This document shows, piece after piece, positions 4,537-48,380 of a stretch of 49,714 nucleotides of DNA (position 1 is the first letter of the stretch; every line of letters begins with the position of its first letter). The position numbers were made by a program, and so were the translations under genes. The stretch is from a virus (Duplodnaviria; Heunggongvirae; Uroviricota; Caudoviricetes): the IMG/VR virus record IMGVR_UViG_643348544_000005. One strand, written 5' to 3'. Under the pieces are notes generated by a model. That model was not told the DNA's origin and made no database searches. It saw nothing but the letters and a program-made list of their open reading frames with translations.

Positions 4537-4589
4537 GGGCGGCAGAGCAGTCACGGAGTAAAACTGATACCGCCAAACGTCACCAGAAA
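4537..4589 (-). ncRNA. dicF: DicF small regulatory RNA
   Basis: Minus-strand sequence TTTCTGGTGACGTTTGGCGGTATCAGTTTTACTCCGTGACTGCTCTGCCGCCC followed by a T-tract matches the recollected 53-nt DicF RNA; lies upstream of dicB as in the Qin dicBF operon. Confidence 0.85.
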
Positions 4590-4928
4590 ATTGATAACAG
4601 AGGGCGTTGCAGCGGGGTTGTCACTTAAGCGTATGGTCAACCTGACAACCCGGTGTCCTCAACGGGGGAAGGAATAACCCCGCCATACTTACCGCCGCGC
4701 CATTTCGCGGATTGCCACAACCGGAAGCGCACGGTCGACGAAAATTTAACGACAGGCTATCTATGAACCAGCTACCTCGCCGTGCGCTTTCGCGTTATGG
4801 TCTGACTTTTCAGGGAAATATCCTTTCAGTAAACTGTCAGTGCCGGATTCTTATCCGTGTCCGGCGCACGACCACACGCTGTCACGAGAGGTCTCCATTC
4901 TCAACCAGTAACCTCAATGGAGGATAAA

Positions 4929-5123
4929 ATGTCAGAGCAGGAGTTAAAACTTGGTGCATGTTATTGTGTTCTCAAGGAGCTGGTACACATGCTTCCATCT
5001 ACTCAGTATCAACAGTTAGTTGGCAATTTAAATCAGCGAATCGAAGCTATGTTAAAATCTGATGGTTTTAATAACGTAGAAACGCTGATGCTAAAAAGAT
5101 ATCTTGATGGATTAATCAGATAA
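4929..5123 (+). CDS. Hypothetical small protein encoded antisense inside the dicBF operon spacer
   Basis: 64-aa frame MSEQELKLGACYCVLKELVHML… with SD GGAGGA (4917-4922) 6 nt before ATG 4929; converges on and overlaps the 3' end of the minus-strand gene 5112..5462 by 12 bp. Confidence 0.3.
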   Translation: MSEQELKLGACYCVLKELVHMLPSTQYQQLVGNLNQRIEAMLKSDGFNNVETLMLKRYLDGLIR

Positions 5124-5462
5124 CATTTTTTTACGGCGTTCATATTCGTTAATATTTATGAAGCCTGTTGCCAGAAGCAGTTCGTTAATTTCATGGTTGT
5201 TTGGCTGTTTCTGGCTCTTTGAGCTGGGATCTTCCACTTCTTTTTCTGCAAATTGTTTTGCTGTATCCTCTGTGCCATGGATATTTAAAGCTGTATCTGA
5301 AAACAGCCCAGTAAACGCATCGCGCACATTACGAGCCATATTATCAGTGTCTTTTTTTGTTACCGATTCCAATTCAAGTTCGTTCAGACGATGACGAAGT
5401 GTGTGTGCTGCAATCTCCTGGATTGAAGGAGGTAAATCTTTAAATTCCATCGTCAACCTCAT
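5112..5462 (-). CDS. dicBF-operon protein (position equivalent to YdfB/YdfC)
   Basis: 116-aa ORF directly downstream of ydfA with start overlapping the ydfA stop (ATGA at 5462); second in-frame ATG at 5450; identity beyond operon position not established. Confidence 0.5.
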   Translation of the reverse strand: MRLTMEFKDLPPSIQEIAAHTLRHRLNELELESVTKKDTDNMARNVRDAFTGLFSDTALNIHGTEDTAKQFAEKEVEDPSSKSQKQPNNHEINELLLATGFININEYERRKKMLSD

Positions 5463-5614
5463 CAGTCAGTGTTTCTTGCTAACCAGCGATGCGCGCCAGC
5501 TGCGGTTTTAAACGTTTTACTTTTGGTATACGTCATCGCGGTGAAGGTGCCGTCCTGGTTAGGGAACACACCGCATACCAGAGATTCGTTGTTGCCAAGA
5601 TCGATAGTATCCAT
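5462..5614 (-). CDS. ydfA: YdfA-like small protein
   Basis: 50-aa frame MDTIDLGNNESLVCGVFPNQDGTFTAMTYTKSKTFKT… from ATG 5612-5614 with GAGG SD; matches recollected Qin YdfA. Confidence 0.8.
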   Translation of the reverse strand: MDTIDLGNNESLVCGVFPNQDGTFTAMTYTKSKTFKTAAGAHRWLARNTD

Positions 5615-5730
5615 GCTGACCTCATTTCCCCTTAACGCCGGGGTAGCGGAACTGTTTGCGGAGAACACCGTGCGGTGTGTTGATGGAAGTAATTTAGTTT
5701 TCTCATTATTTTTCGTCAAGGCTTTTTGAT

Positions 5731-5742
5731 GAGAAAACTCAA
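5731..5742 (+). promoter_or_regulatory. Operator-like motif GAGAAAACTCAA (copy 1, leftward dicBF-operon promoter region)
   Basis: Same 12-mer recurs at 6267-6278 on the other side of the repressor gene, with extended similarity (GAGAAAACTCAAGTGTTGG vs GAGAAAACTCAATATTGG); OL/OR-like placement. Confidence 0.3.
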
Positions 5743-5806
5743 GTGTTGGCGCAAGATAAAGCCAATACATTGAAATGTAAGGCTTTAAAATTTTGTGAAG
5801 GGATGA

Positions 5807-6214
5807 TTATTGATGCTTGTTGCGTTTGCGAGCCTCTAATAGCTCGGTGAACAGGCGATTAAAATTCTCAACGCGGGCGCGGAGTTCGCTGAGTTGTGCT
5901 TGTTGCTCTGATTTAGGAAGTGCGCGATACAAACGCAGCATCTCTAACTCATCTTCCGATAAGTCTAGGGTACTATCGAGTGAAACAGGGGGAGCTGGTG
6001 TTTTGTCCTCGTCGCCAAACAGTATCCAGGTTGGTGAACATTGCAATACCTCGGCGAGGCGATGCAAATTTTGCCCGCGCGGGGCTGTATGGTCACTTTC
6101 CCATAATGAAATTGATGAGCCAGATACGCCAGCAGCTTTGCTTAAACCGTTTTGACTTAAGCCTACCTGCTTACGTCTTTCTCTAATGCGTTGACCTAAA
6201 GTTTTCTCGTTCAT
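5807..6214 (-). CDS. dicA: DicA-like HTH repressor (CI analogue)
   Basis: 135-aa frame from ATG 6212-6214 (MNEKTLGQRIRERRKQVGLSQ…VLQCSPTWILFGDEDK…) closely resembles recollected E. coli DicA; divergent from dicC-like gene. Confidence 0.85.
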   Translation of the reverse strand: MNEKTLGQRIRERRKQVGLSQNGLSKAAGVSGSSISLWESDHTAPRGQNLHRLAEVLQCSPTWILFGDEDKTPAPPVSLDSTLDLSEDELEMLRLYRALPKSEQQAQLSELRARVENFNRLFTELLEARKRNKHQ

Positions 6215-9899: not shown

Positions 9900-10559
9900 C
9901 TAAATATGTATATGTTTACCAACAACCACATATGAACTACCTGCTTTGCTCCATGATTTTATTATTTCTAAATTATTATCTGAGCATATTTTACTTACAG
10001 TATCCACATCTAATAAACCATAGTAGAAAGCATTACGAGAGTTTTGGTATATATACCCATGCAAATGTTTAATACCGCTCTCGTACCTCTTGAAATAAGA
10101 ACTTTTGTATTGATTGACAATCAGTGCTTCACCATCACTCTTTAATAATTCTCTAATCGCACTGAGGACTTTGTGAATTGTGGATTCACATGGAATTGCG
10201 GAAAGCACGTTTGCGCAAAGTATGAAATCATAATGATTTGTTATTTTATCTATATTTTCATAAGAAACAATATTAGCATTCTTATAGTTATTTATCACGT
10301 AATCTGGAATCGTGGTTTGTACACCTCTGATAATTTGCACTCTTTCTAGTTGTCTTCTGGAATCTAAAAATGTCACAGTTTCAAATTTATTTACTAATTG
10401 TTCTGAATATCTAAGTTTTCCACATCCAAAATCAAGGGCATTGCCATTTTTATTAGTGCTTTCAATCTGTTTACAGAGATAGTTAGATGGCATAGTGTGC
10501 GGTTTCGCTGCATTTTCTGAACGTATGTTTATTCCATTTATTTTGTAATTCAAAATCAA
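9900..10559 (-). CDS. Class I SAM-dependent methyltransferase
   Basis: 219-aa ORF (track start is TTG at 10559; alternative ATG at 10493); glycine-rich SAM motif …ALDFGCGKLRY… followed by acidic …VTFLDSR…; begins 7 bp after the stop of the upstream membrane-protein gene. Confidence 0.65.
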   Translation of the reverse strand: MILNYKINGINIRSENAAKPHTMPSNYLCKQIESTNKNGNALDFGCGKLRYSEQLVNKFETVTFLDSRRQLERVQIIRGVQTTIPDYVINNYKNANIVSYENIDKITNHYDFILCANVLSAIPCESTIHKVLSAIRELLKSDGEALIVNQYKSSYFKRYESGIKHLHGYIYQNSRNAFYYGLLDVDTVSKICSDNNLEIIKSWSKAGSSYVVVGKHIHI

Positions 10560-11261: not shown

Positions 11262-12003
11262 TTTACTCTCCAAACATTCAAAAAAAAGCTAATCTTCTAT
11301 AATAACGAAATTCAGCTGGCACAATTAAAGATTAATTGCCACCAATTTCTTGATTTTATAATTTTATCTAAATGTTTTTGATTAATCTAGTCCTAAAAGA
11401 AACCTACTGCATAAATATTTATGCTGATGACCCACTCCCTGTTCGTTAACACATAGCAACGTTAGTAATGCATCCTAAGTGATCAATATTTTTGCTAGCT
11501 TCATCTGCTCGCTCAAAGGGAACTATAATGTTGGCTTGCGTGTGACTTGGCATGTTTAAAGAAGTGCTGGTGGTGACTGGTTGCTGTTTTCCATTTCCAC
11601 AGAACAAAATCATAGAAACTATACCCAGTAGTTGTATTGAATCACTGACGAGACAGCCTCATATTTATCAGGACTGGTGTACGTCCAATACAGGAGGTTG
11701 TGGTGCTGGTTCTCAAATGTGCGCTGGCTATTGCTGCTGTAATGGCAATTTATTGTCTTGCTGTTGTTCTTATGGATCACCTTTCTGATTGATTTCATAT
11801 TGGCGAGGTAACGGTAGTTAAGTAGAATTGCTGCGGGTGCTTGAGGCTATCTGCCTCGGGCATCAACACCAAAGGCAGATAGAGAAAAGCCCCAGTTAAC
11901 ATTACGCGTCCGGCAAGACGCTTAACATTAATCTGAGGCCATATCTATGCTCTACACACGTAGGTTAGCCTCTTACGTGCCGAAAGGCAAGGAGAAGCAG
12001 GCT

Positions 12004-12159
12004 ATGAAGCAGCAAAAGGCGATGCTAATCGCCCTGATCGTCATCTGTTTAACCGTCATAGTGACGGCACTGGTAACGAGGAAAGACCTCTGCGAGGTAC
12101 GAATCCGAACCGGCCAGACGGAGGTCGCTGTCTTCACAGCTTACGAACCTGAGGAGTAA
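12004..12159 (+). CDS. hokD: Hok/Gef-family type I toxin (HokD/RelF-like)
   Basis: 51-aa frame MKQQKAMLIALIVICLTVIVTALVTRKDLCEVRIRTGQTEVAVFTAYEPEE matches recollected HokD; upstream leader has hok-mRNA-like inverted repeats; in-frame upstream extension (from 11947) is the mok-like leader, not a separate gene. Confidence 0.85.
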   Translation: MKQQKAMLIALIVICLTVIVTALVTRKDLCEVRIRTGQTEVAVFTAYEPEE

Positions 12160-17218: not shown

Positions 17219-17294
17219 GGCCCTTTAGCTCAGTGGTGAGAGCGAGCGACTCATAATCGCCAGGTCGCTGGTTCAAATCCAGCAAGGGCCACCA
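17219..17294 (+). tRNA. tRNA with CAU anticodon (Ile2/ileZ-like or Met)
   Basis: Cloverleaf read directly: acceptor GGCCCTT/AAGGGCC (7 bp), D-arm GCTC…GAGC, anticodon loop CTCATAA, T-arm GCTGG-TTCAAAT-CCAGC, encoded CCA. Confidence 0.85.
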
Positions 17295-17301
17295 TCACAT
17301 A

Positions 17302-17378
17302 CCGCCATTAGCTCATCAGGAAAGAGCGCCAGCCTTCGAAGCTGGTTGCGCGGAGTTCGGGTCCCCGAAGGCGGTCCA
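17302..17378 (+). tRNA. tRNA-Arg-like (anticodon UCG), imperfect stems
   Basis: D-arm GCTC…GAGC and anticodon arm CCAGC-CTTCGAA-GCTGG are clean; acceptor (CCGCCAT/AAGGCGG) and T-stem (CGGAG/CCCCG) each carry one mismatch and T-loop is TTCGGGT; may be degenerate. Confidence 0.55.
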
Positions 17379-17391
17379 TTATCTGTATCCT

Positions 17392-17468
17392 GCGTTGTTA
17401 GCTCAGCCGGACAGAGCAATTGCCTTCTAAGCAATCGGTCACTGGTTCGAATCCAGTACAACGCGCCA
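17392..17468 (+). tRNA. tRNA-Arg (anticodon UCU)
   Basis: Acceptor GCGTTGT/ACAACGC perfect, D-arm GCTC-AGCCGGACA-GAGC, anticodon arm ATTGC-CTTCTAA-GCAAT, T-arm ACTGG-TTCGAAT-CCAGT, encoded CCA. Confidence 0.85.
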
Positions 17469-17514: not shown

Positions 17515-17730
17515 CTCACAATTTAGGCGGTTGACTGTTGTCTGGTTTGCGGGGAGTTTGTTAAAAGAAACTGGCATGGTGAATCCCCCTGTGCGGAGGG
17601 GCAATCAGCGAGTAGGTATATGGGATAATCGCGGATTCAGGTGCTGGTACTGAATTCACCGGGAGGCACCCGGCACCATGCAATGGCACATAGCGCCACT
17701 CTCCAGCCCCTCTCCGGAGGGGCTTTTCTG
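17515..17730 (+). repeat. Copy 1 of a diverged ~215-bp non-coding module (promoter-like box, conserved hairpins, terminator)
   Basis: Shares with copy 2: CTCACAATT, TTGAC(T/A), GCATGGTGAATCCCCCTG(T/A)GCGGAGGGGC, CACCGGGAGGCACCCGGCACCATG, and CCCCTCTCCGGAGGGG + T-tract. Confidence 0.6.
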
Positions 17731-17982
17731 TGCCGGATACATCACAGTTTCTGGAACCTTAGGTACTACAGTATCAGTCAGGGTGCTATATTTTCAGATG
17801 TGATGAAAGCCTGTCAGCAGGCAGGGCGTATCGGAAATGACCCAGTAGAGAAAACGTTGACTCAGATACCGGTGCTGAGTTACCGGGAAACCGGCATCAC
17901 ATGACCGCTATCCTTCCAGGCCCATCCGCTCCGGTGGGCCTTTTTACTGCAGAAAACAGGTTCCCCGTTAAATGCTATGTTG

Positions 17983-18215
17983 CTCACAATTCAGTAAGTT
18001 GACAGTTGCCTGTCAGACTGGGCATTTGTTAAAAAAATTTCGCATGGTGAATCCCCCTGAGCGGAGGGGCGACTGGTGACGGTATAATCTCTGATTATCA
18101 AAACGAGAATGACGCGGGTTTAGTGGCACCGGGCTGAACTCACCGGGAGGCACCCGGCACCATGTGCATGATGATACAGATACGCGGCTTTAGCCCCTCT
18201 CCGGAGGGGTTTTCT
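17983..18215 (+). repeat. Copy 2 of the diverged non-coding module
   Basis: Same ordered blocks as copy 1, 468 bp downstream; contains an additional TATAAT-like element (GGTATAATC) and extra downstream hairpins (CCCGCG…CGCGGG). Confidence 0.6.
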
Positions 18216-18444
18216 TGTGGGCAAAAAAAGCCCGCGCTGGGAGACGCGGGCGGCAAGGAATAAACAATAAAACGTGAAGTAATATTTCAGCTGGCGAATA
18301 ATACCCCATAGTAATCACTCTGCGCAACTGCGCGGTCTTTTTCGAATTGCGGGCTGTCGTCTCTCTTCTGCCATTGTCCTGTAACTTCCGGACTTCAGCC
18401 CGCTCCTTATTTTACTCACAATATTATCCCGGCCGGGAGGATTC

Positions 18445-38669: not shown

Positions 38670-39413
38670 ATGACACAGACTGAATCAGCGATTCTGGCGC
38701 ATGCCCGGCGGTGTGCGCCTGCGGAGTCGTGCGGCTTCGTGATAAGCACGCCGGAGGGGGAGTGGTATATCCCTTGTGTGAATATTTCTGCAGAGCCGGA
38801 GGCGTATTTTCGTATCGCACCGGAAGACTGGCTGCGGGCAGAGATGCAGGGGGAGATTGTGGCACTGGTCCACAGTCATCCCGGTGGGCTGCCCTGGCTG
38901 AGCGAGGCTGACCGGCGGCTGCAGATAAAAAGCGCACTGCCCTGGTGGCTGGTCTGCCGGGGTGACATTCACAAATTCCGCTGTGTGCCACATCTGACAG
39001 GACGGCGCTTTGAGCACGGGGTGACGGACTGTTACACGCTGTTCCGGGATGCTTATCATCTGGCGGGGACTGAGATGCCGGATTTTCATCGCGAGGATGA
39101 CTGGTGGCGCAACGGTCAGAACCTTTACCTGGACAATATGGCGGTCACCGGCTTTTACCGGGTGCCCCTGTCCTCTGCACAGGTGGGCGATATTCTGCTG
39201 TGCTGCTTTGGTGCTTCGGTACCGAACCATGCCGCCATTTACTGCGGCAACGGTGAGCTGCTTCACCATCTGCCTGAACAACTGAGTAAACGGGAGAGGT
39301 ATTCCGAAAAATGGCAACGACGAACGCATTCTGTCTGGCGTCACCGCCACTGGCACGCATCTGCCTTCACGGGGATTTACAACGATTTGGCCGCCGCCTC
39401 AGCCTGTATGTGA
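38670..39413 (+). CDS. K: Tail assembly protein K (NlpC/P60-like)
   Basis: Frame from ATG 38670 (MTQTESAILAHARRCAPAESCGFV…) matches lambda gpK. Confidence 0.85.
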   Translation: MTQTESAILAHARRCAPAESCGFVISTPEGEWYIPCVNISAEPEAYFRIAPEDWLRAEMQGEIVALVHSHPGGLPWLSEADRRLQIKSALPWWLVCRGDIHKFRCVPHLTGRRFEHGVTDCYTLFRDAYHLAGTEMPDFHREDDWWRNGQNLYLDNMAVTGFYRVPLSSAQVGDILLCCFGASVPNHAAIYCGNGELLHHLPEQLSKRERYSEKWQRRTHSVWRHRHWHASAFTGIYNDLAAASACM

Positions 39414-39991
39414 ACACGGCAGCGGAAGCCATTCGCGCCCTGTCGATGCAGATGCCGGGCTTTCGCCGTCAGATGAACGAAGGCTGGTACCAGATACGTA
39501 TTGCCGGTTATGACACGGCACCGGAGGCGGTGTACGCCCGTCTTCACGAACAGCTGGGTGAGGGAACGGTCATCCACATTGTGCCGCGACTGGCCGGGGC
39601 CGGAAAGGGTGGACTGCAGATTGTGCTGGGGGCGGCAGCCATCGTGGGCTCTTTCTTCACTGCCGGGGCATCAATGGCGTTATGGGGTTCAGCCCTGGCA
39701 GCCGGTGGTTTTTCTGCCACCACGATGCTGTTTTCACTTGGAGCCAGCATGATTCTGGGCGGTGTGGCCCAGATGCTGGCCCCGAAGGCAAAAACACCGG
39801 ATTACCGCGCAACGGATAACGGCAGACAGAACACGTACTTTTCCTCGCTGGATAACATGATTGCCCAGGGGAACCCGATGCCGGTGCCTTACGGGGAAAT
39901 GCTGGTTGGCTCCCGCCGTATATCCCAGGACATCAGCACCCGTGATGAAGGCGGGGGCGGAAAGGTCGTGGTTATCGGGCGACAGGGATAA
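39311..39991 (+). CDS. I: Tail assembly protein I
   Basis: 226 aa; matches lambda gpI. Confidence 0.85.
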   Translation: MATTNAFCLASPPLARICLHGDLQRFGRRLSLYVNTAAEAIRALSMQMPGFRRQMNEGWYQIRIAGYDTAPEAVYARLHEQLGEGTVIHIVPRLAGAGKGGLQIVLGAAAIVGSFFTAGASMALWGSALAAGGFSATTMLFSLGASMILGGVAQMLAPKAKTPDYRATDNGRQNTYFSSLDNMIAQGNPMPVPYGEMLVGSRRISQDISTRDEGGGGKVVVIGRQG

Positions 39992-40333
39992 AACATAAAA
40001 AAATCCCGCAGTGATCGCGGAGCTGCGGGGACAGACAAATGAAGATCAATGTGAAGGAGTTGTTTTTGTTACTCGGGCAAAAAAACACTAACGCAGCGAA
40101 ATTATAAGCGCCACAGTCAGTGTGTGAAAATGTGAAGATATTCAGAATTTTTATGCCATTACCGGTTTTAACCAACAGGATTATCGGTGGGCATGAAAGA
40201 AAACCCCGGTATCTGCTGATACCGGGGTTTCTCTTTAGCATGGCAGAAATGTGTTTCATGCTTTTCGGGCGAAGGATATCCGACTTCTGTACGGAATGGC
40301 AAGTGGCGGTTAATTTATTCAGGGGAAGGCTGT

Positions 40334-43300
40334 ATGGGAAAAGGTGGCGGTAAGGCACACACGCCTCGTGAGGCGAAGGATAATCTCAAATCCACGCAGA
40401 TGATGAGTGTGATTGATGCGATTGGTGAGGGACCGATAGAAGGTCCGGTGAAGGGACTGCAGAGTATTCTGGTGAACAAAACCCCACTGACGGACACGGA
40501 CGGCAATCCCGTGATACACGGTGTGACGGCGGTCTGGCGCGCCGGGGAGCAGGAGCAGACACCACCGGAAGGCTTTGAGTCCTCCGGAGCTGAAACCGGA
40601 CTGGGCGTGGAAGTGACGAAGGCAAAACCGGTGACGCGCACCATTACGTCCGCGAACATTGACCGCCTGCGGGTTACCTTCGGGGTGCAGTCACTGGTGG
40701 AGACCACGTCAAAGGGTGACCGTAATCCGTCCTCTGTCCGTCTGCTGATTCAGTTACAGCGTAACGGTAACTGGGTGACAGAAAAGGATGTCACCATTAA
40801 CGGCAAGACCACCTCACAGTTCCTGGCCTCGGTGATTCTGGATAATCTGCCTCCCCGCCCCTTTAACATCCGGATGGTCAGGGAGACGGCGGACAGCACC
40901 ACGGACCAGCTGCAGAACAGAACGCTGTGGTCGTCATACACCGAAATCATCGATGTGAAACAGTGCTACCCGAACACGGCCATTGTGGGGATGCAGGTGG
41001 ATGCGGAGCAGTTTGGTGGTCAGCAGATGACGGTGAACTACCATATCCGCGGTCGCATCATCCAGGTGCCGTCAAACTATGACCCGGAAAAACGCACGTA
41101 CAGTGGTATCTGGGACGGCAGTCTGAAACCGGCATACAGCAACAATCCGGCCTGGTGTCTGTGGGACATGCTGACTCACCCGCGCTACGGCATGGGAAAA
41201 CGTCTGGGGGCGGCGGATGTGGACAAGTGGGCGCTGTATGCCATCGGGCAGTACTGCGACCAGATGGTCCCGGATGGTTTCGGGGGGACAGAGCCGCGGA
41301 TGACCTTTAATGCGTACCTGGCACAACAGCGTAAGGCGTGGGACGTTCTCAGTGATTTCTGCTCTGCGATGCGCTGTATGCCGGTATGGAACGGTCAGAC
41401 GCTGACGTTCGTTCAGGACCGCCCGTCGGATGTGGTGTGGCCGTACACCAACAGCGATGTGGTGGTGGATGATAACGGCGTGGGATTCCGCTACAGCTTC
41501 AGTGCCCTGAAGGACCGGCACACGGCGGTGGAGGTGAATTACACCGACCCGCAGAACGGCTGGCAGACCTCCACGGAACTGGTGGAAGACCCGGAAGCCA
41601 TACTGCGCTACGGACGCAACCTGCTGAAGATGGACGCGTTCGGCTGTACCAGCCGCGGTCAGGCCCACCGTGCCGGACTGTGGGTGATAAAGACCGAACT
41701 GCTGGAAACGCAGACGGTGGATTTCACGCTCGGGTCTCAGGGGCTGCGGCACACACCCGGTGACATCATTGAAATCTGTGATAACGACTATGCCGGGATC
41801 CTGACCGGCGGACGTGTCCTGTCCATTGATGCTGCCACCCGCACCCTGACGCTGGACCGTGAGGTTACCCTGCCGGAGACCGGTGCCGCCACGGTGAACC
41901 TGATTAACGGCAGCGGTAAGCCGGTGAGTGTGGACATCACCGAACACCCCGCGCCGGACCGGATACAGGTCAGTACCCTGCCTGATGGTGTGGAGACATA
42001 CGGGGTGTGGGGACTCTCCCTGCCGTCACTGCGCCGTCGCCTGTTCCGCTGTGTCTCCATCCGGGAAAACACGGACGGCACCTTTGCCATCACGGCGGTG
42101 CAGCACGTACCGGAAAAAGAAGCCATCGTGGATAACGGTGCCCGCTTTGAGCCGCAGTCAGGCTCCCTGAACAGCGTCATCCCACCGGCAGTACAGCACC
42201 TGACGGTGGAGGTGAGCGCAGCTGACGGCCAGTATCTGGCGCAGGCTAAATGGGACACGCCGCGGGTGGTGAAGGGCGTGCGCTTCAGTCTGCGCCTGAC
42301 CAGTGGTAAGGGAACGGATGCCAGACTGGTGACCACCGCCATCACCGCAGACACGGAGCACCGTTTCAGCGGCCTGCCGCTCGGGGAATACACCCTGACG
42401 GTGCGGGCGATAAACAGCTATGGCCAGCAGGGTGAGCCTGCCACCACCACCTTCCGGATTGCCGCACCGGCAGCACCGTCGCGGATTGAGCTGACGCCGG
42501 GCTATTTTCAGATAACCGCCACGCCGCATCTTGCCGTTTATGACCCGACGGTACAGTTTGAGTTCTGGTTCTCGGAAAAGCGGATTGCGGATATCAGGCA
42601 GGTTGAAACCGCAGCCCGCTATCTTGGCTCGGCGCTGTACTGGATAGCTGCCAGTATCAATATCAAACCGGGCCATGATTATTATTTTTATATCCGCAGT
42701 GTGAATACTGTTGGCAAATCGGCATTCGTGGAGGCTGTCGGTCGGGCGAGCGATGATGCGGAAGGTTACCTGGATTTTTTCAAAGGAGAAATCGGGAAAA
42801 CACATCTGGCCCAGGAGCTGTGGACGCAGATTGATAACGGTCAGCTTGCGCCGGACCTGGCTGAAATCAGGACGTCCATTACGAATGTCAGCAATGAAAT
42901 CACGCAGACCGTCAATAAAAAACTGGAAGACCAGAGTGCGGCAATCCAGCAGATACAGAAAGTTCAGGTTGATACAAATAATAACCTGAACAGCATGTGG
43001 GCCGTGAAACTGCAGCAGATGAAGGACGGACGCCTTTATATTGCGGGTATCGGTGCCGGTATTGAGAACACCCCTGACGGCATGCAGAGTCAGGTGCTTC
43101 TGGCTGCTGACCGGATTGCGATGATTAATCCTGCGAATGGCAACACAAAGCCGATGTTTGTTGGTCAGGGCGATCAGATATTCATGAACGACGTGTTCCT
43201 GAAACGCCTGACGGCTCCGACCATTACCAGCGGCGGTAATCCTCCGGCATTTTCCCTGACACCGGACGGGCGGCTGACGGCGAAAAATGCCGATATCAGC

Positions 43301-43807
43301 GGTAACGTGAATGCGAACTCCGGGACGCTCAACAACGTCACGATTAACGAGAACTGTCGGGTTCTGGGAAAATTGTCCGCCAACCAGATTGAAGGCGATC
43401 TCGTTAAAACAGTGGGCAAAGCTTTCCCCCGGGACTCCCGTGCACCGGAACGGTGGCCATCAGGGACCATCACCGTCAGGGTTTATGACGATCAGCCGTT
43501 TGACCGGCAGATTGTTATTCCGGCGGTGGCATTCAGCGGCGCTAAACATGAGCGGGAGAATAACGATATTTATTCGTCATGCCGCCTGATAGTACGGAAA
43601 AACGGTGCTGAAATTTATAACCGTACCGCGCTGGATAATACGCTGATTTACAGTGGTGTTATTGATATGCCAGCTGGTCGCGGCCACATGACGCTGGAGT
43701 TTTCGGTGTCAGCATGGCTGGTGAATAACTGGTATCCCACAGCAAGTATCAGCGATTTGCTGGTTGTGGTGATGAAGAAAGCCACCGCAGGCATCAGTAT
43801 CAGCTGA
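40334..43807 (+). CDS. J: Tail tip/central fibre host-specificity protein J
   Basis: 1157 aa; N-terminus [37 protein letters not shown]… and overall length match lambda gpJ. Confidence 0.9.
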
Positions 43808-47796: not shown

Positions 47797-48380
47797 TGGC
47801 ATTCAGAATGAGTGAACAAGCACGGACCATAAAAATTTATAATCTGCTGGCCGGAACTAATGAATTTATTGGTGAAGGTGACGCATATATTCCGCCTCAT
47901 ACAGGTCTGCCAGCAAACAGTACCGATATTGCACCGCCAGATATTCCGGCTGGCTTTGTGGCTGTTTTCAACAGTGATGAGGCATCGTGGCATCTCGTTG
48001 AAGATCATCGGGGTAAAACGGTTTATGACGTAGCTTCCGGCGACGCGTTATTTATTTCTGAACTCGGCTTATTACCGGAAAATGTTACCTGGTTATCGCC
48101 AGAAGGGGAGTTTCAGAAGTGGAACGGCACAACCTGGGTGAAAGATGCAGAAGCAGAAAAACTGTTCCGGATCCGGGAGGCGGAAGAAACAAAAAACAAC
48201 CTGATGCAGGTAGCCAGTGAGCATATTGCGCCGCTTCAGGATGCTGCAGATCTGGAAATTGCAACGGAGGAAGAAACCTCATTGCTGGAAGCCTGGAAAA
48301 AGTATCGGGTGTTGCTGAACCGTGTTGATACATCAACTGCACCTGATATTGAGTGGCCTACGAACCCTGTCAGGGAGTAA
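47796..48380 (+). CDS. tfa: Tail fibre assembly protein Tfa
   Basis: 194 aa; [54 protein letters not shown]… matches lambda Tfa; start overlaps stf stop (TAATG). Confidence 0.85.

Follow-up and report, generated by a model that had tools for sequence, protein, structure and literature searches.

The locus examined here raises the question of why two late tail genes, I and J, are held apart in a prophage (IMG/VR record IMGVR_UViG_643348544_000005; its 49,714 nucleotides are referred to below as the window) by a long stretch of DNA, and of what this stretch encodes. In a first-pass annotation, made from the sequence alone, the two genes were said to be adjacent in phage lambda, which is approximately right, the lambda genes lying 60 bp apart, and to be separated here by about 340 bp; this gap is real, I ending at 39991 and J starting at 40334, so that the spacer measures 342 bp. 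The two flanking genes are the following:

39311-39991, plus strand: tail assembly gene I, the upstream flank, an ORF of 226 aa whose homologous loci are annotated "tail assembly protein".
40334-43807, plus strand: tail tip/host specificity gene J, the downstream flank, an ORF of 1157 aa corresponding to gpJ in homologous loci.

In public loci identical or nearly identical to this one, J is annotated as "phage attachment tail tip protein J"; it has no possible upstream extension, 40334 being the first start codon past an in-frame stop. The possibility, raised in the first-pass annotation as one that would speak against its own proposals, that the spacer is part of an extended J or a known small ORF was checked, and the RefSeq records were found to leave the spacer unannotated. 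The four ORFs that can be drawn mechanically within it (77 and 26 aa on the plus strand, 128 and 44 aa on the minus strand) are not preserved in related spacers, in agreement with the earlier view that no convincing ORF is present, and searches of the four against Pfam and PHROG returned no family match. The spacer is non-coding and holds two real inverted repeats. Comparison with related loci shows that it is not one insert, as had been supposed, being composed instead of two independently assorting modules: a first module (39992 to ~40149), which carries the small RNA gene pasB, and a second one (40150-40333), which adjoins J. The finding of a structured I-J spacer is real and, for the most part, already described.

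Three readings had been offered for the spacer at the outset, namely a small RNA gene, an attenuator of J expression and a remnant of a mobile insert. The first of them stands for the I-proximal half, which contains the published minus-strand PasB. The elements of this half are:

39997-40079, minus strand (read from 40079 to 39997): the pasB sRNA gene, 83 nt, with the published ends, identical at 83/83 nt to PasB of strain E2348/69.
39997-40029, minus strand: intrinsic terminator of PasB (the first inverted repeat), with stem 40029-40023/40011-40005, an 11-nt loop and U7 at 40003-39997, as given by repeat search, terminator scan and fold.
40039-40049, minus strand: conserved single-stranded core UUGAUCUUCAU of PasB, the probable seed, with the near-invariant UNAAUCUU, unpaired in the fold.
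40101-40128, minus strand: sigma-70 promoter-like site for pasB (TTCACA, 16 nt, TATAAT; 11/12), found by promoter scan and conserved in variants.
40128-40149, no strand assigned: CRP-like box AAATGTGAAGATATTCAGAATT, upstream of the pasB promoter, agreeing with the consensus at 14 of 16 positions and conserved in variants.

The near-consensus promoter, aimed at the first hairpin, suggested by itself a minus-strand RNA of about 100 nt; the identity of this RNA is given by comparison with enteropathogenic E. coli (EPEC) E2348/69, whose PasB (NC_011601, 1466343 to 1466261) is 100% identical to the minus strand of the window between 40079 and 39997, and by the northern probe used for PasB, AATCCCGCAGTGATCGCGGAGCT, which matches the plus strand exactly at 40002-40024. 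Also in E2348/69 the gene lies between a tail assembly gene and gpJ, antisense to both, and the spacer sequence there does not differ from that of the window between the end of I and ~40147, inclusive of an identical promoter region. Since the 83 nt and the locus as far as ~40147 are the same, the first hairpin is to be taken as the PasB terminator and the gene as running from 40079 to 39997. The two loci thus have in common the RNA, the promoter region, the strand, the terminator and the position, and differ in the J-proximal part, which is 184 bp long and contains the second hairpin in the window, while in E2348/69 it consists of ~85 bp with another hairpin; it is this different module that makes the spacer 342 bp long here and 240 bp there.

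In E2348/69, PasB has been described as an 83-nt RNA encoded on the minus strand of prophage PP6, between E2348C_1436 and E2348C_1437 (Table S6 of Pearl Mizrahi et al. 2021, PMC8550237), and a size of ~83 nt was borne out by northern blot; the RNA is strongly diminished in a delta-hfq strain (log2FC -6.8 and -2.4), reaches higher levels in overnight LB than in DMEM, and takes part in 37 RIL-seq interactions, being nearly always RNA2 of the chimeras (PMC8550237). Among the entries of table S3 of the same paper considered here, the chimera partners are core-genome mRNAs (e.g., yhhX, ygeV, yibT, yhiD and the ydbJ 5'UTR), and the PasB portions of the chimeras span 1466260-1466317, that is, 39996-40053 of the window. 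More recently PasB has been mapped to 1107 chromosomes and presented as an sRNA embedded within a phage structural operon, with a proposed seed immediately 5' of the terminator (Zhu, Shabalina & Storz 2026 preprint). On these grounds the identification of pasB, together with a trans-acting and Hfq-dependent mode of action, is held with high confidence; its expression in the present prophage would be expected from the identical sequence in another strain.

The first inverted repeat, CCCGCAG/CTGCGGG, is real and preceded by an A-tract, as reported in the first-pass annotation; its arms, placed there at 40008-40036, are a few bases off and occupy 40005-40011 and 40023-40029. That it acts as a terminator on the minus strand agrees with the terminator scan, which calls one on this strand, the A7 at 39997-40003 of the plus strand being the U7 that follows the hairpin in the minus-strand transcript. 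Indeed, a G+C-rich stem of 7 bp followed by a U-run, as in an intrinsic terminator, is found on the minus strand only, and on the plus strand there is no T-run 3' of the stem. The predicted folding of this hairpin is modestly better than chance (z = -2.1; 5/200 shuffles equal it), so that the case for its reality is carried by its invariance in 30 sequence variants (see below) and by the published transcript data; in the 22 variants that were aligned, stem and U-run do not change, and the loop ranges from 9 to 16 nt.

Apart from the terminator, the predicted fold of PasB consists of an unpaired seed region, and as a whole it is no better than that of shuffled sequences (z ~ -0.7), a situation common among sRNAs with long unpaired seeds. 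When the alignment of variants was submitted to RNAalifold, no covariation was detected, the 7/7 terminator pairs being invariant and no other helix being called; given that these pairs do not vary, the comparison neither strengthens nor weakens the PasB structure. The core UUGAUCUUCAU is probably the seed, and a complement to the seed, sought elsewhere in the window, was found at the cis locus only.

As for the 5' end, the TATAAT box predicts a start at ~40094 and hence a primary transcript of ~98 nt, while the published estimate, based on coverage and blot size, puts the end at 40079, that is, 15 nt downstream; RNA processing, a rough estimate or a second promoter may explain the discrepancy, and a second conserved TAnnnT element (40090-40085) would fit the published end.

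Taken together, these elements suggest that pasB is an autonomous sRNA moron in antisense orientation, with a sigma-70 promoter of its own (40128-40101) for minus-strand transcription, and that this transcription ends at the first hairpin and its U7, five bases past the stop codon of I. The resulting RNA, of 83-98 nt, would expose a long unpaired middle with the conserved core UNAAUCUUCAU and end in a terminator U-tail suited to Hfq. In lysogens PasB would base-pair in trans with host mRNAs in an Hfq-dependent manner, as shown for the identical EPEC sequence, while in the lytic phase the sRNA may be titrated by the late transcript of I and J, which is complementary to all of PasB, or the two may be cleaved together. 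The concept of the moron goes back to Juhala et al. 2000, as cited in a passage of PMC4104026. Like the morons of lambdoid phages, the first module is an extra promoter-gene-terminator unit between two genes that in lambda are 60 bp apart; unlike them, it yields an RNA rather than a protein and is oriented against the late operon. The module may be counted as a moron, with promoter and terminator predicted and with an autonomous transcription that the published expression in lysogens makes probable.

The distribution of pasB is wide. In BLAST searches, 1808 of the 5426 complete E. coli genomes proved to carry PasB-like modules, a single genome having as many as 10, and none of them is annotated among the matches listed; matches to the initial ~165 bp of the spacer, at 73-78% identity, are also present in Stx1 and Stx2 phages. 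Thirty distinct variants of the module were brought together from E. coli genomes, phage records and contigs of IMG/VR. Common to them are the invariant terminator stem and U-run, a core UNAAUCUU(C/U)(A/G)U, an A(A/C)(C/U)UCC motif, a -10 box, which reads TATAAT, AATAAT or TATCAT throughout, and the stretch that leads from the latter, with no insertion or deletion, to the upstream box AAATGTGAAGAnnTTCAGAAnTT; it is in the loops and in the variable region that the 30 variants differ. A scan of species-representative genomes with the CRP-box pattern gave E. albertii only, in addition to three short, contamination-like contigs; the latter (L015, L016 and L018), from assemblies named Asaia, Parendozoicomonas and Streptomyces, carry the E. 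coli spacer and are most likely contamination.

The same variants bear on a different reading of the module, in which a small protein encoded on the plus strand (MKINVKELFLLLGQKNTNAAKL, 40039-40107) would be the gene product and PasB its antisense regulator, in a manner resembling type I toxin-antitoxin systems. The ATG is preceded by a purine-rich stretch, and the first ~10 codons are similar across variants and include several third-position changes. The ATG, however, becomes ACG in variant types B, F, G and H and is removed by a 4-nt deletion in type E; the predicted length ranges from 15 to 39 aa, with a changing frame and C-terminus; the peptide lacks hydrophobic character and has no Pfam or PHROG match; and the signals of the sRNA are intact in all variants. 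The toxin-antitoxin candidate (plus-strand ORF MKINVKELF..., 40039-40107) was consequently rejected, its start being lost or frameshifted in most variant types and its length variable, and the small-protein reading is considered very improbable.

The family also includes RNAs already known under other names. In enterohaemorrhagic E. coli (EHEC) O157:H7 Sakai, EcOnc22, EcOnc23 and EcOnc24 were described as Hfq-crosslinked RNAs (CRAC) of ~85 nt, destabilised in the absence of Hfq (Tree et al. 2014, PMC4104026). Their sites are the I-J spacers of the Sakai prophages Sp15, Sp14 and Sp11, and the EcOnc probe, over its first 23 nt, agrees perfectly with the tail-gene strand at the place that corresponds by homology to the PasB seed; the shared site and the homologous position of the probe lead to the conclusion that EcOnc22/23/24 are homologues of PasB. 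The assignment was made by probe sequence, since the CRAC peak coordinates of 2014 are not in exact agreement with the record version used, in which they fall 157-159 nt from the I stop. The EcOnc RNAs occupy the same spacer in the same antisense orientation and share with PasB the terminator stem, the U-run, the core UUAAUCUUCAU, the -10 and the CRP-like box; with ~73-78% identity and another variable region and loop, they represent homologues and not the same allele. The link between PasB and EcOnc22/23/24 is stated neither in PMC8550237 nor in the preprint of Zhu et al.

A further comparison is offered by the anti-sRNAs AgvB and AsxR. Both these RNAs and PasB form short, prophage-encoded, Hfq-binding families that combine a conserved 3' part with a variable part devoted to target recognition; AgvB and AsxR, however, are encoded at the PR' moron site downstream of Q, measure 51-60 nt and conserve their 3' 42 nt, while PasB is found in the tail operon. 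Membership of PasB in the AgvB-AsxR group, as an AgvB-like anti-GcvB RNA, is ruled out by its location and by the lack of a match to any Rfam family, those of AgvB and AsxR included; no sequence resemblance was noticed. Between 39000 and 41500, Rfam gave no match even at E <= 1, and in the whole window its gathering-level matches are confined to IS009, two copies of STnc100, sok, DicF and three tRNAs:

48139-48337, 17545-17735, 18013-18222, 11835-12009 and 17219-17465, plus strand, and 4537-4588, minus strand: the matches to Rfam families.

The known small RNA genes of the prophage thus number at least six in addition to pasB. A weaker CRP-consensus-like match, with 3 mismatches, occurs at 17970-17991, a short distance upstream of one of the STnc100 copies (start at 18013).

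The box upstream of the pasB promoter has 2 mismatches out of the 16 specified positions of the 22-bp consensus AAATGTGA-N6-TCACATTT, the chance expectation for matches with up to 3 mismatches being 0.30 per window; in the variants, which were collected by BLAST without reference to the box, it is the best-conserved block of the spacer. Its centre (40138.5) is at -44.5 from the predicted start and at about -60 (-59.5 to -60.5) from the published one, and matches neither the canonical -41.5 of class II nor the -61.5 of class I. Hfq-dependent sRNAs under CRP control include CyaR, which is activated, and Spot 42, which is repressed. Like these two, pasB has a CRP-consensus-like box beside its promoter; it differs from them in the non-canonical spacing between box and start. 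In the EPEC data, PasB behaves reciprocally to the CRP-repressed Spf, the latter being ~5-fold higher in DMEM and PasB being higher in overnight LB (PMC8550237); this contrast is consistent with an activation of pasB by CRP, and growth phase could explain it equally well. The conserved box would place pasB under cAMP-CRP control, a proposal that we consider plausible, with the balance leaning somewhat against it.

The second module, which occupies the J-proximal part of the spacer, is of a different nature. Its features are:

40150-40333, no strand assigned: the second module, a non-coding J-proximal variant of the spacer, diverging from the E2348/69 spacer from ~40148.
40192-40242, no strand assigned: the second inverted repeat (hairpin 2), an extended stem with U-rich tails on both strands and perfect arms at 40201-40213/40218-40230.
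40273-40302, minus strand: weak promoter-like site (TTGCCA, 18 nt, TATCCT; 9/12) found by promoter scan, which together with hairpin 2 could bound a hypothetical RNA of ~70 nt.

The second inverted repeat is terminator-like on both strands, as noted at first reading, and the stem of 9 bp attributed to it was an understatement: 13 perfect pairs enclose a 4-nt loop, and the stem can be extended to ~22 pairs. Its predicted energy is -32.5 kcal/mol on the plus strand and -28.7 on the minus strand (z = -6.8; 0/200 shuffles fold as well), and the tails are UUUCUCUUU on the plus strand and UUUUCUUUC on the minus strand; the A- and U-tracts, however, pair with each other, which weakens the terminator tails, and the scan called no terminator there. 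A literature search for the sequence of hairpin 2 gave no match.

From ~40148 onward, the window diverges completely from the spacers of E2348/69, of Sakai and of most Stx phages. The second module is nevertheless frequent, being present in 1445 genomes, and extremely uniform: 1441 of 1450 E. coli records are at least 99% identical, compared with just 937 of 1843 records for the first 184 bp of J. Divergent homologues were sought in phages, plasmids and E. coli genomes and none was found, all matches being 95.7-100% identical and nearly all at least 99%; the extra match places given by the search are probably the palindrome matching itself. In some loci, the module is 100% identical while the first module is at 80% and the 5' end of J (first 600 bp) at 94-99%, which implies that the modules assort independently. 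The alternative module found at the same position carries a hairpin of its own, CAGGCACCC-TCCG-GGGTGCCTG, followed by UUGUUUUU on the tail-gene strand (z = -5.7), unrelated to hairpin 2 and displaying one compensatory change from C-G to U-A, of which both intermediates are seen. The occurrence of an unrelated hairpin with a T-run in the alternative module indicates that a strong hairpin followed by a sense U-run, between the pasB promoter and J, is a recurrent trait.

What hairpin 2 does may be discussed in terms of several readings. The one favoured here, with low confidence, is that of an intrinsic terminator or an insulator interposed between the pasB unit and J, in which case the hairpin would stop sense transcription that is not antiterminated and, in this variant, also the minus-strand read-through coming from J. 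A polymerase antiterminated by Q normally reads through intrinsic terminators, as in lambda, so that during lytic growth the Q-modified enzyme would ignore such a terminator and its benefit is doubtful; the proposal of a terminator or insulator is a tentative one.

Alternatively, hairpin 2 could be a cis element of the late tail mRNA, acting either as an attenuator of J relative to the upstream tail genes, along the lines suggested in the first-pass annotation, or in processing and stability, with the ~22-bp stem serving as an RNase III site or with a 5' stem-loop protecting the J mRNA after cleavage of the PasB:mRNA duplex. A sense hairpin followed by a U-rich run is the sole feature common to the two unrelated versions of the spacer; hairpin 2 is located between the stretch complementary to PasB and the ribosome-binding site of J; and the module is more conserved than the coding sequence of J. 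The behaviour of the Q-antiterminated polymerase just mentioned weighs against this reading too, and the hairpin of the common variant, with just ~13 pairs, is short for RNase III. On balance, a cis-acting role in the tail mRNA seems doubtful.

The conservation of the module could also have little to do with function. The I-J spacer is a recombination hot spot, as testified by variants with another module, with a second sRNA unit in tandem, with sodC next to PasB, with an IS3-family insertion or with deletions, and the breakpoint falls exactly at the edge of the conserved box; the second module might then be a functionless mosaic joint, or a scar left by the traffic of morons or mobile elements, whose uniformity reflects recent spread and not selection. 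This explanation is at odds with the 100% identity of the module across loci whose flanks differ by 1-20%, with its varying less, across ~1440 genomes, than the coding DNA beside it, and with the absence of terminal repeats and of transposase remnants within it, and it is regarded as unlikely. The proposal of a remnant of a mobile insert is not directly supported either: what adjoins J is a mosaic module that has been replaced, rather than a repeat-bearing insertion, and its conservation is unusually high.

A last possibility is that the second module encodes an sRNA in its own right, a minus-strand RNA of ~70 nt running from ~40266 (TTGCCA-18-TATCCT) to hairpin 2 with its UUUUCUUUC tail. A minus-strand promoter-like site is present at 40302-40273; the predicted fold (40266 to 40194) begins at its 5' end with a stem-loop, continues with the A-rich linker AAAGAGAAA and closes with a terminator-like hairpin; the conservation of the module is extreme; and other phages have a tandem second PasB-like unit at the same place. 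Against such an RNA are the weak promoter match (9/12), a U-tail fully paired with the A-rich tract, and the fact that neither a homologue of the module in phages or plasmids, nor an Rfam match, nor a literature match to the hairpin sequence was found; moreover, the E2348/69 and Sakai loci examined do not have this module at the I-J junction, so that their data sets are silent on the point. A second sRNA is judged rather improbable. A further reading is a combination of several of these proposals, whereby the whole spacer would be a conserved regulatory cassette in which a cAMP-CRP-controlled PasB acts on host mRNAs and on the late I-J transcript, an obligatory hairpin sets the fate of the J mRNA and the second module encodes a further sRNA of ~70 nt; it is given little credence.

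Several observations on individual phages and contigs illustrate the variety of arrangements encountered at this site. In two IMG/VR contigs (L037, at 9960-10147, and L095), a divergent second PasB-like unit of 179 bp is placed in tandem between PasB and J; this unit too is equipped with a CRP-like box and has, in addition, an AACUCC motif and a hairpin followed by U6. In L136 (~4735-6000), an IS3-family element with transposase ORFs of 115 and 248 aa lies within the second module, upstream of hairpin 2, while in L013 (582-870), L020 and L086 the gene sodC, on the minus strand, adjoins the PasB module at the position expected for J, the sodC junction removing the pasB promoter in L020 and L086. 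Phage YYZ-2008 (L010), L089 and Sp15 (L003), all of which have the common spacer module, carry the heptamer CAGACAT in 2-4 tandem copies immediately before the ribosome-binding site of J. The ompW prophage most like the window is Sp9 of Sakai (L014, 37585-37771), the integrase end of which shares 97% identity with the beginning of the window; a deletion has taken away K, I and half of the PasB terminator, leaving a truncated pasB. Sp9 carries the other version of the second module, which makes the Sakai data uninformative on hairpin 2.

The gene pasB has already been published, and its homologues were published in 2014 (PMC4104026); beyond the papers on PasB and EcOnc, what is added here, as far as the literature was searched and in the form of leads, is the equivalence of PasB with EcOnc22/23/24, the conserved CRP-like box, and the recurrent hairpin with its hyper-conserved 184-bp module. 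Genes of the PasB type occur in a third of complete E. coli genomes, and recognition of the locus prevents false calls of novel elements; with no annotation among the matches listed and no Rfam family, those who read sequence alone will keep rediscovering them. The PasB of EPEC and the EcOnc22/23/24 of EHEC represent one family, established at the same site of the tail operon; the CRP-like box provides a testable link between the carbon status of the host and a prophage sRNA, and the hairpin-bearing module of 184 bp, more uniform than the neighbouring coding sequence, merits attention.
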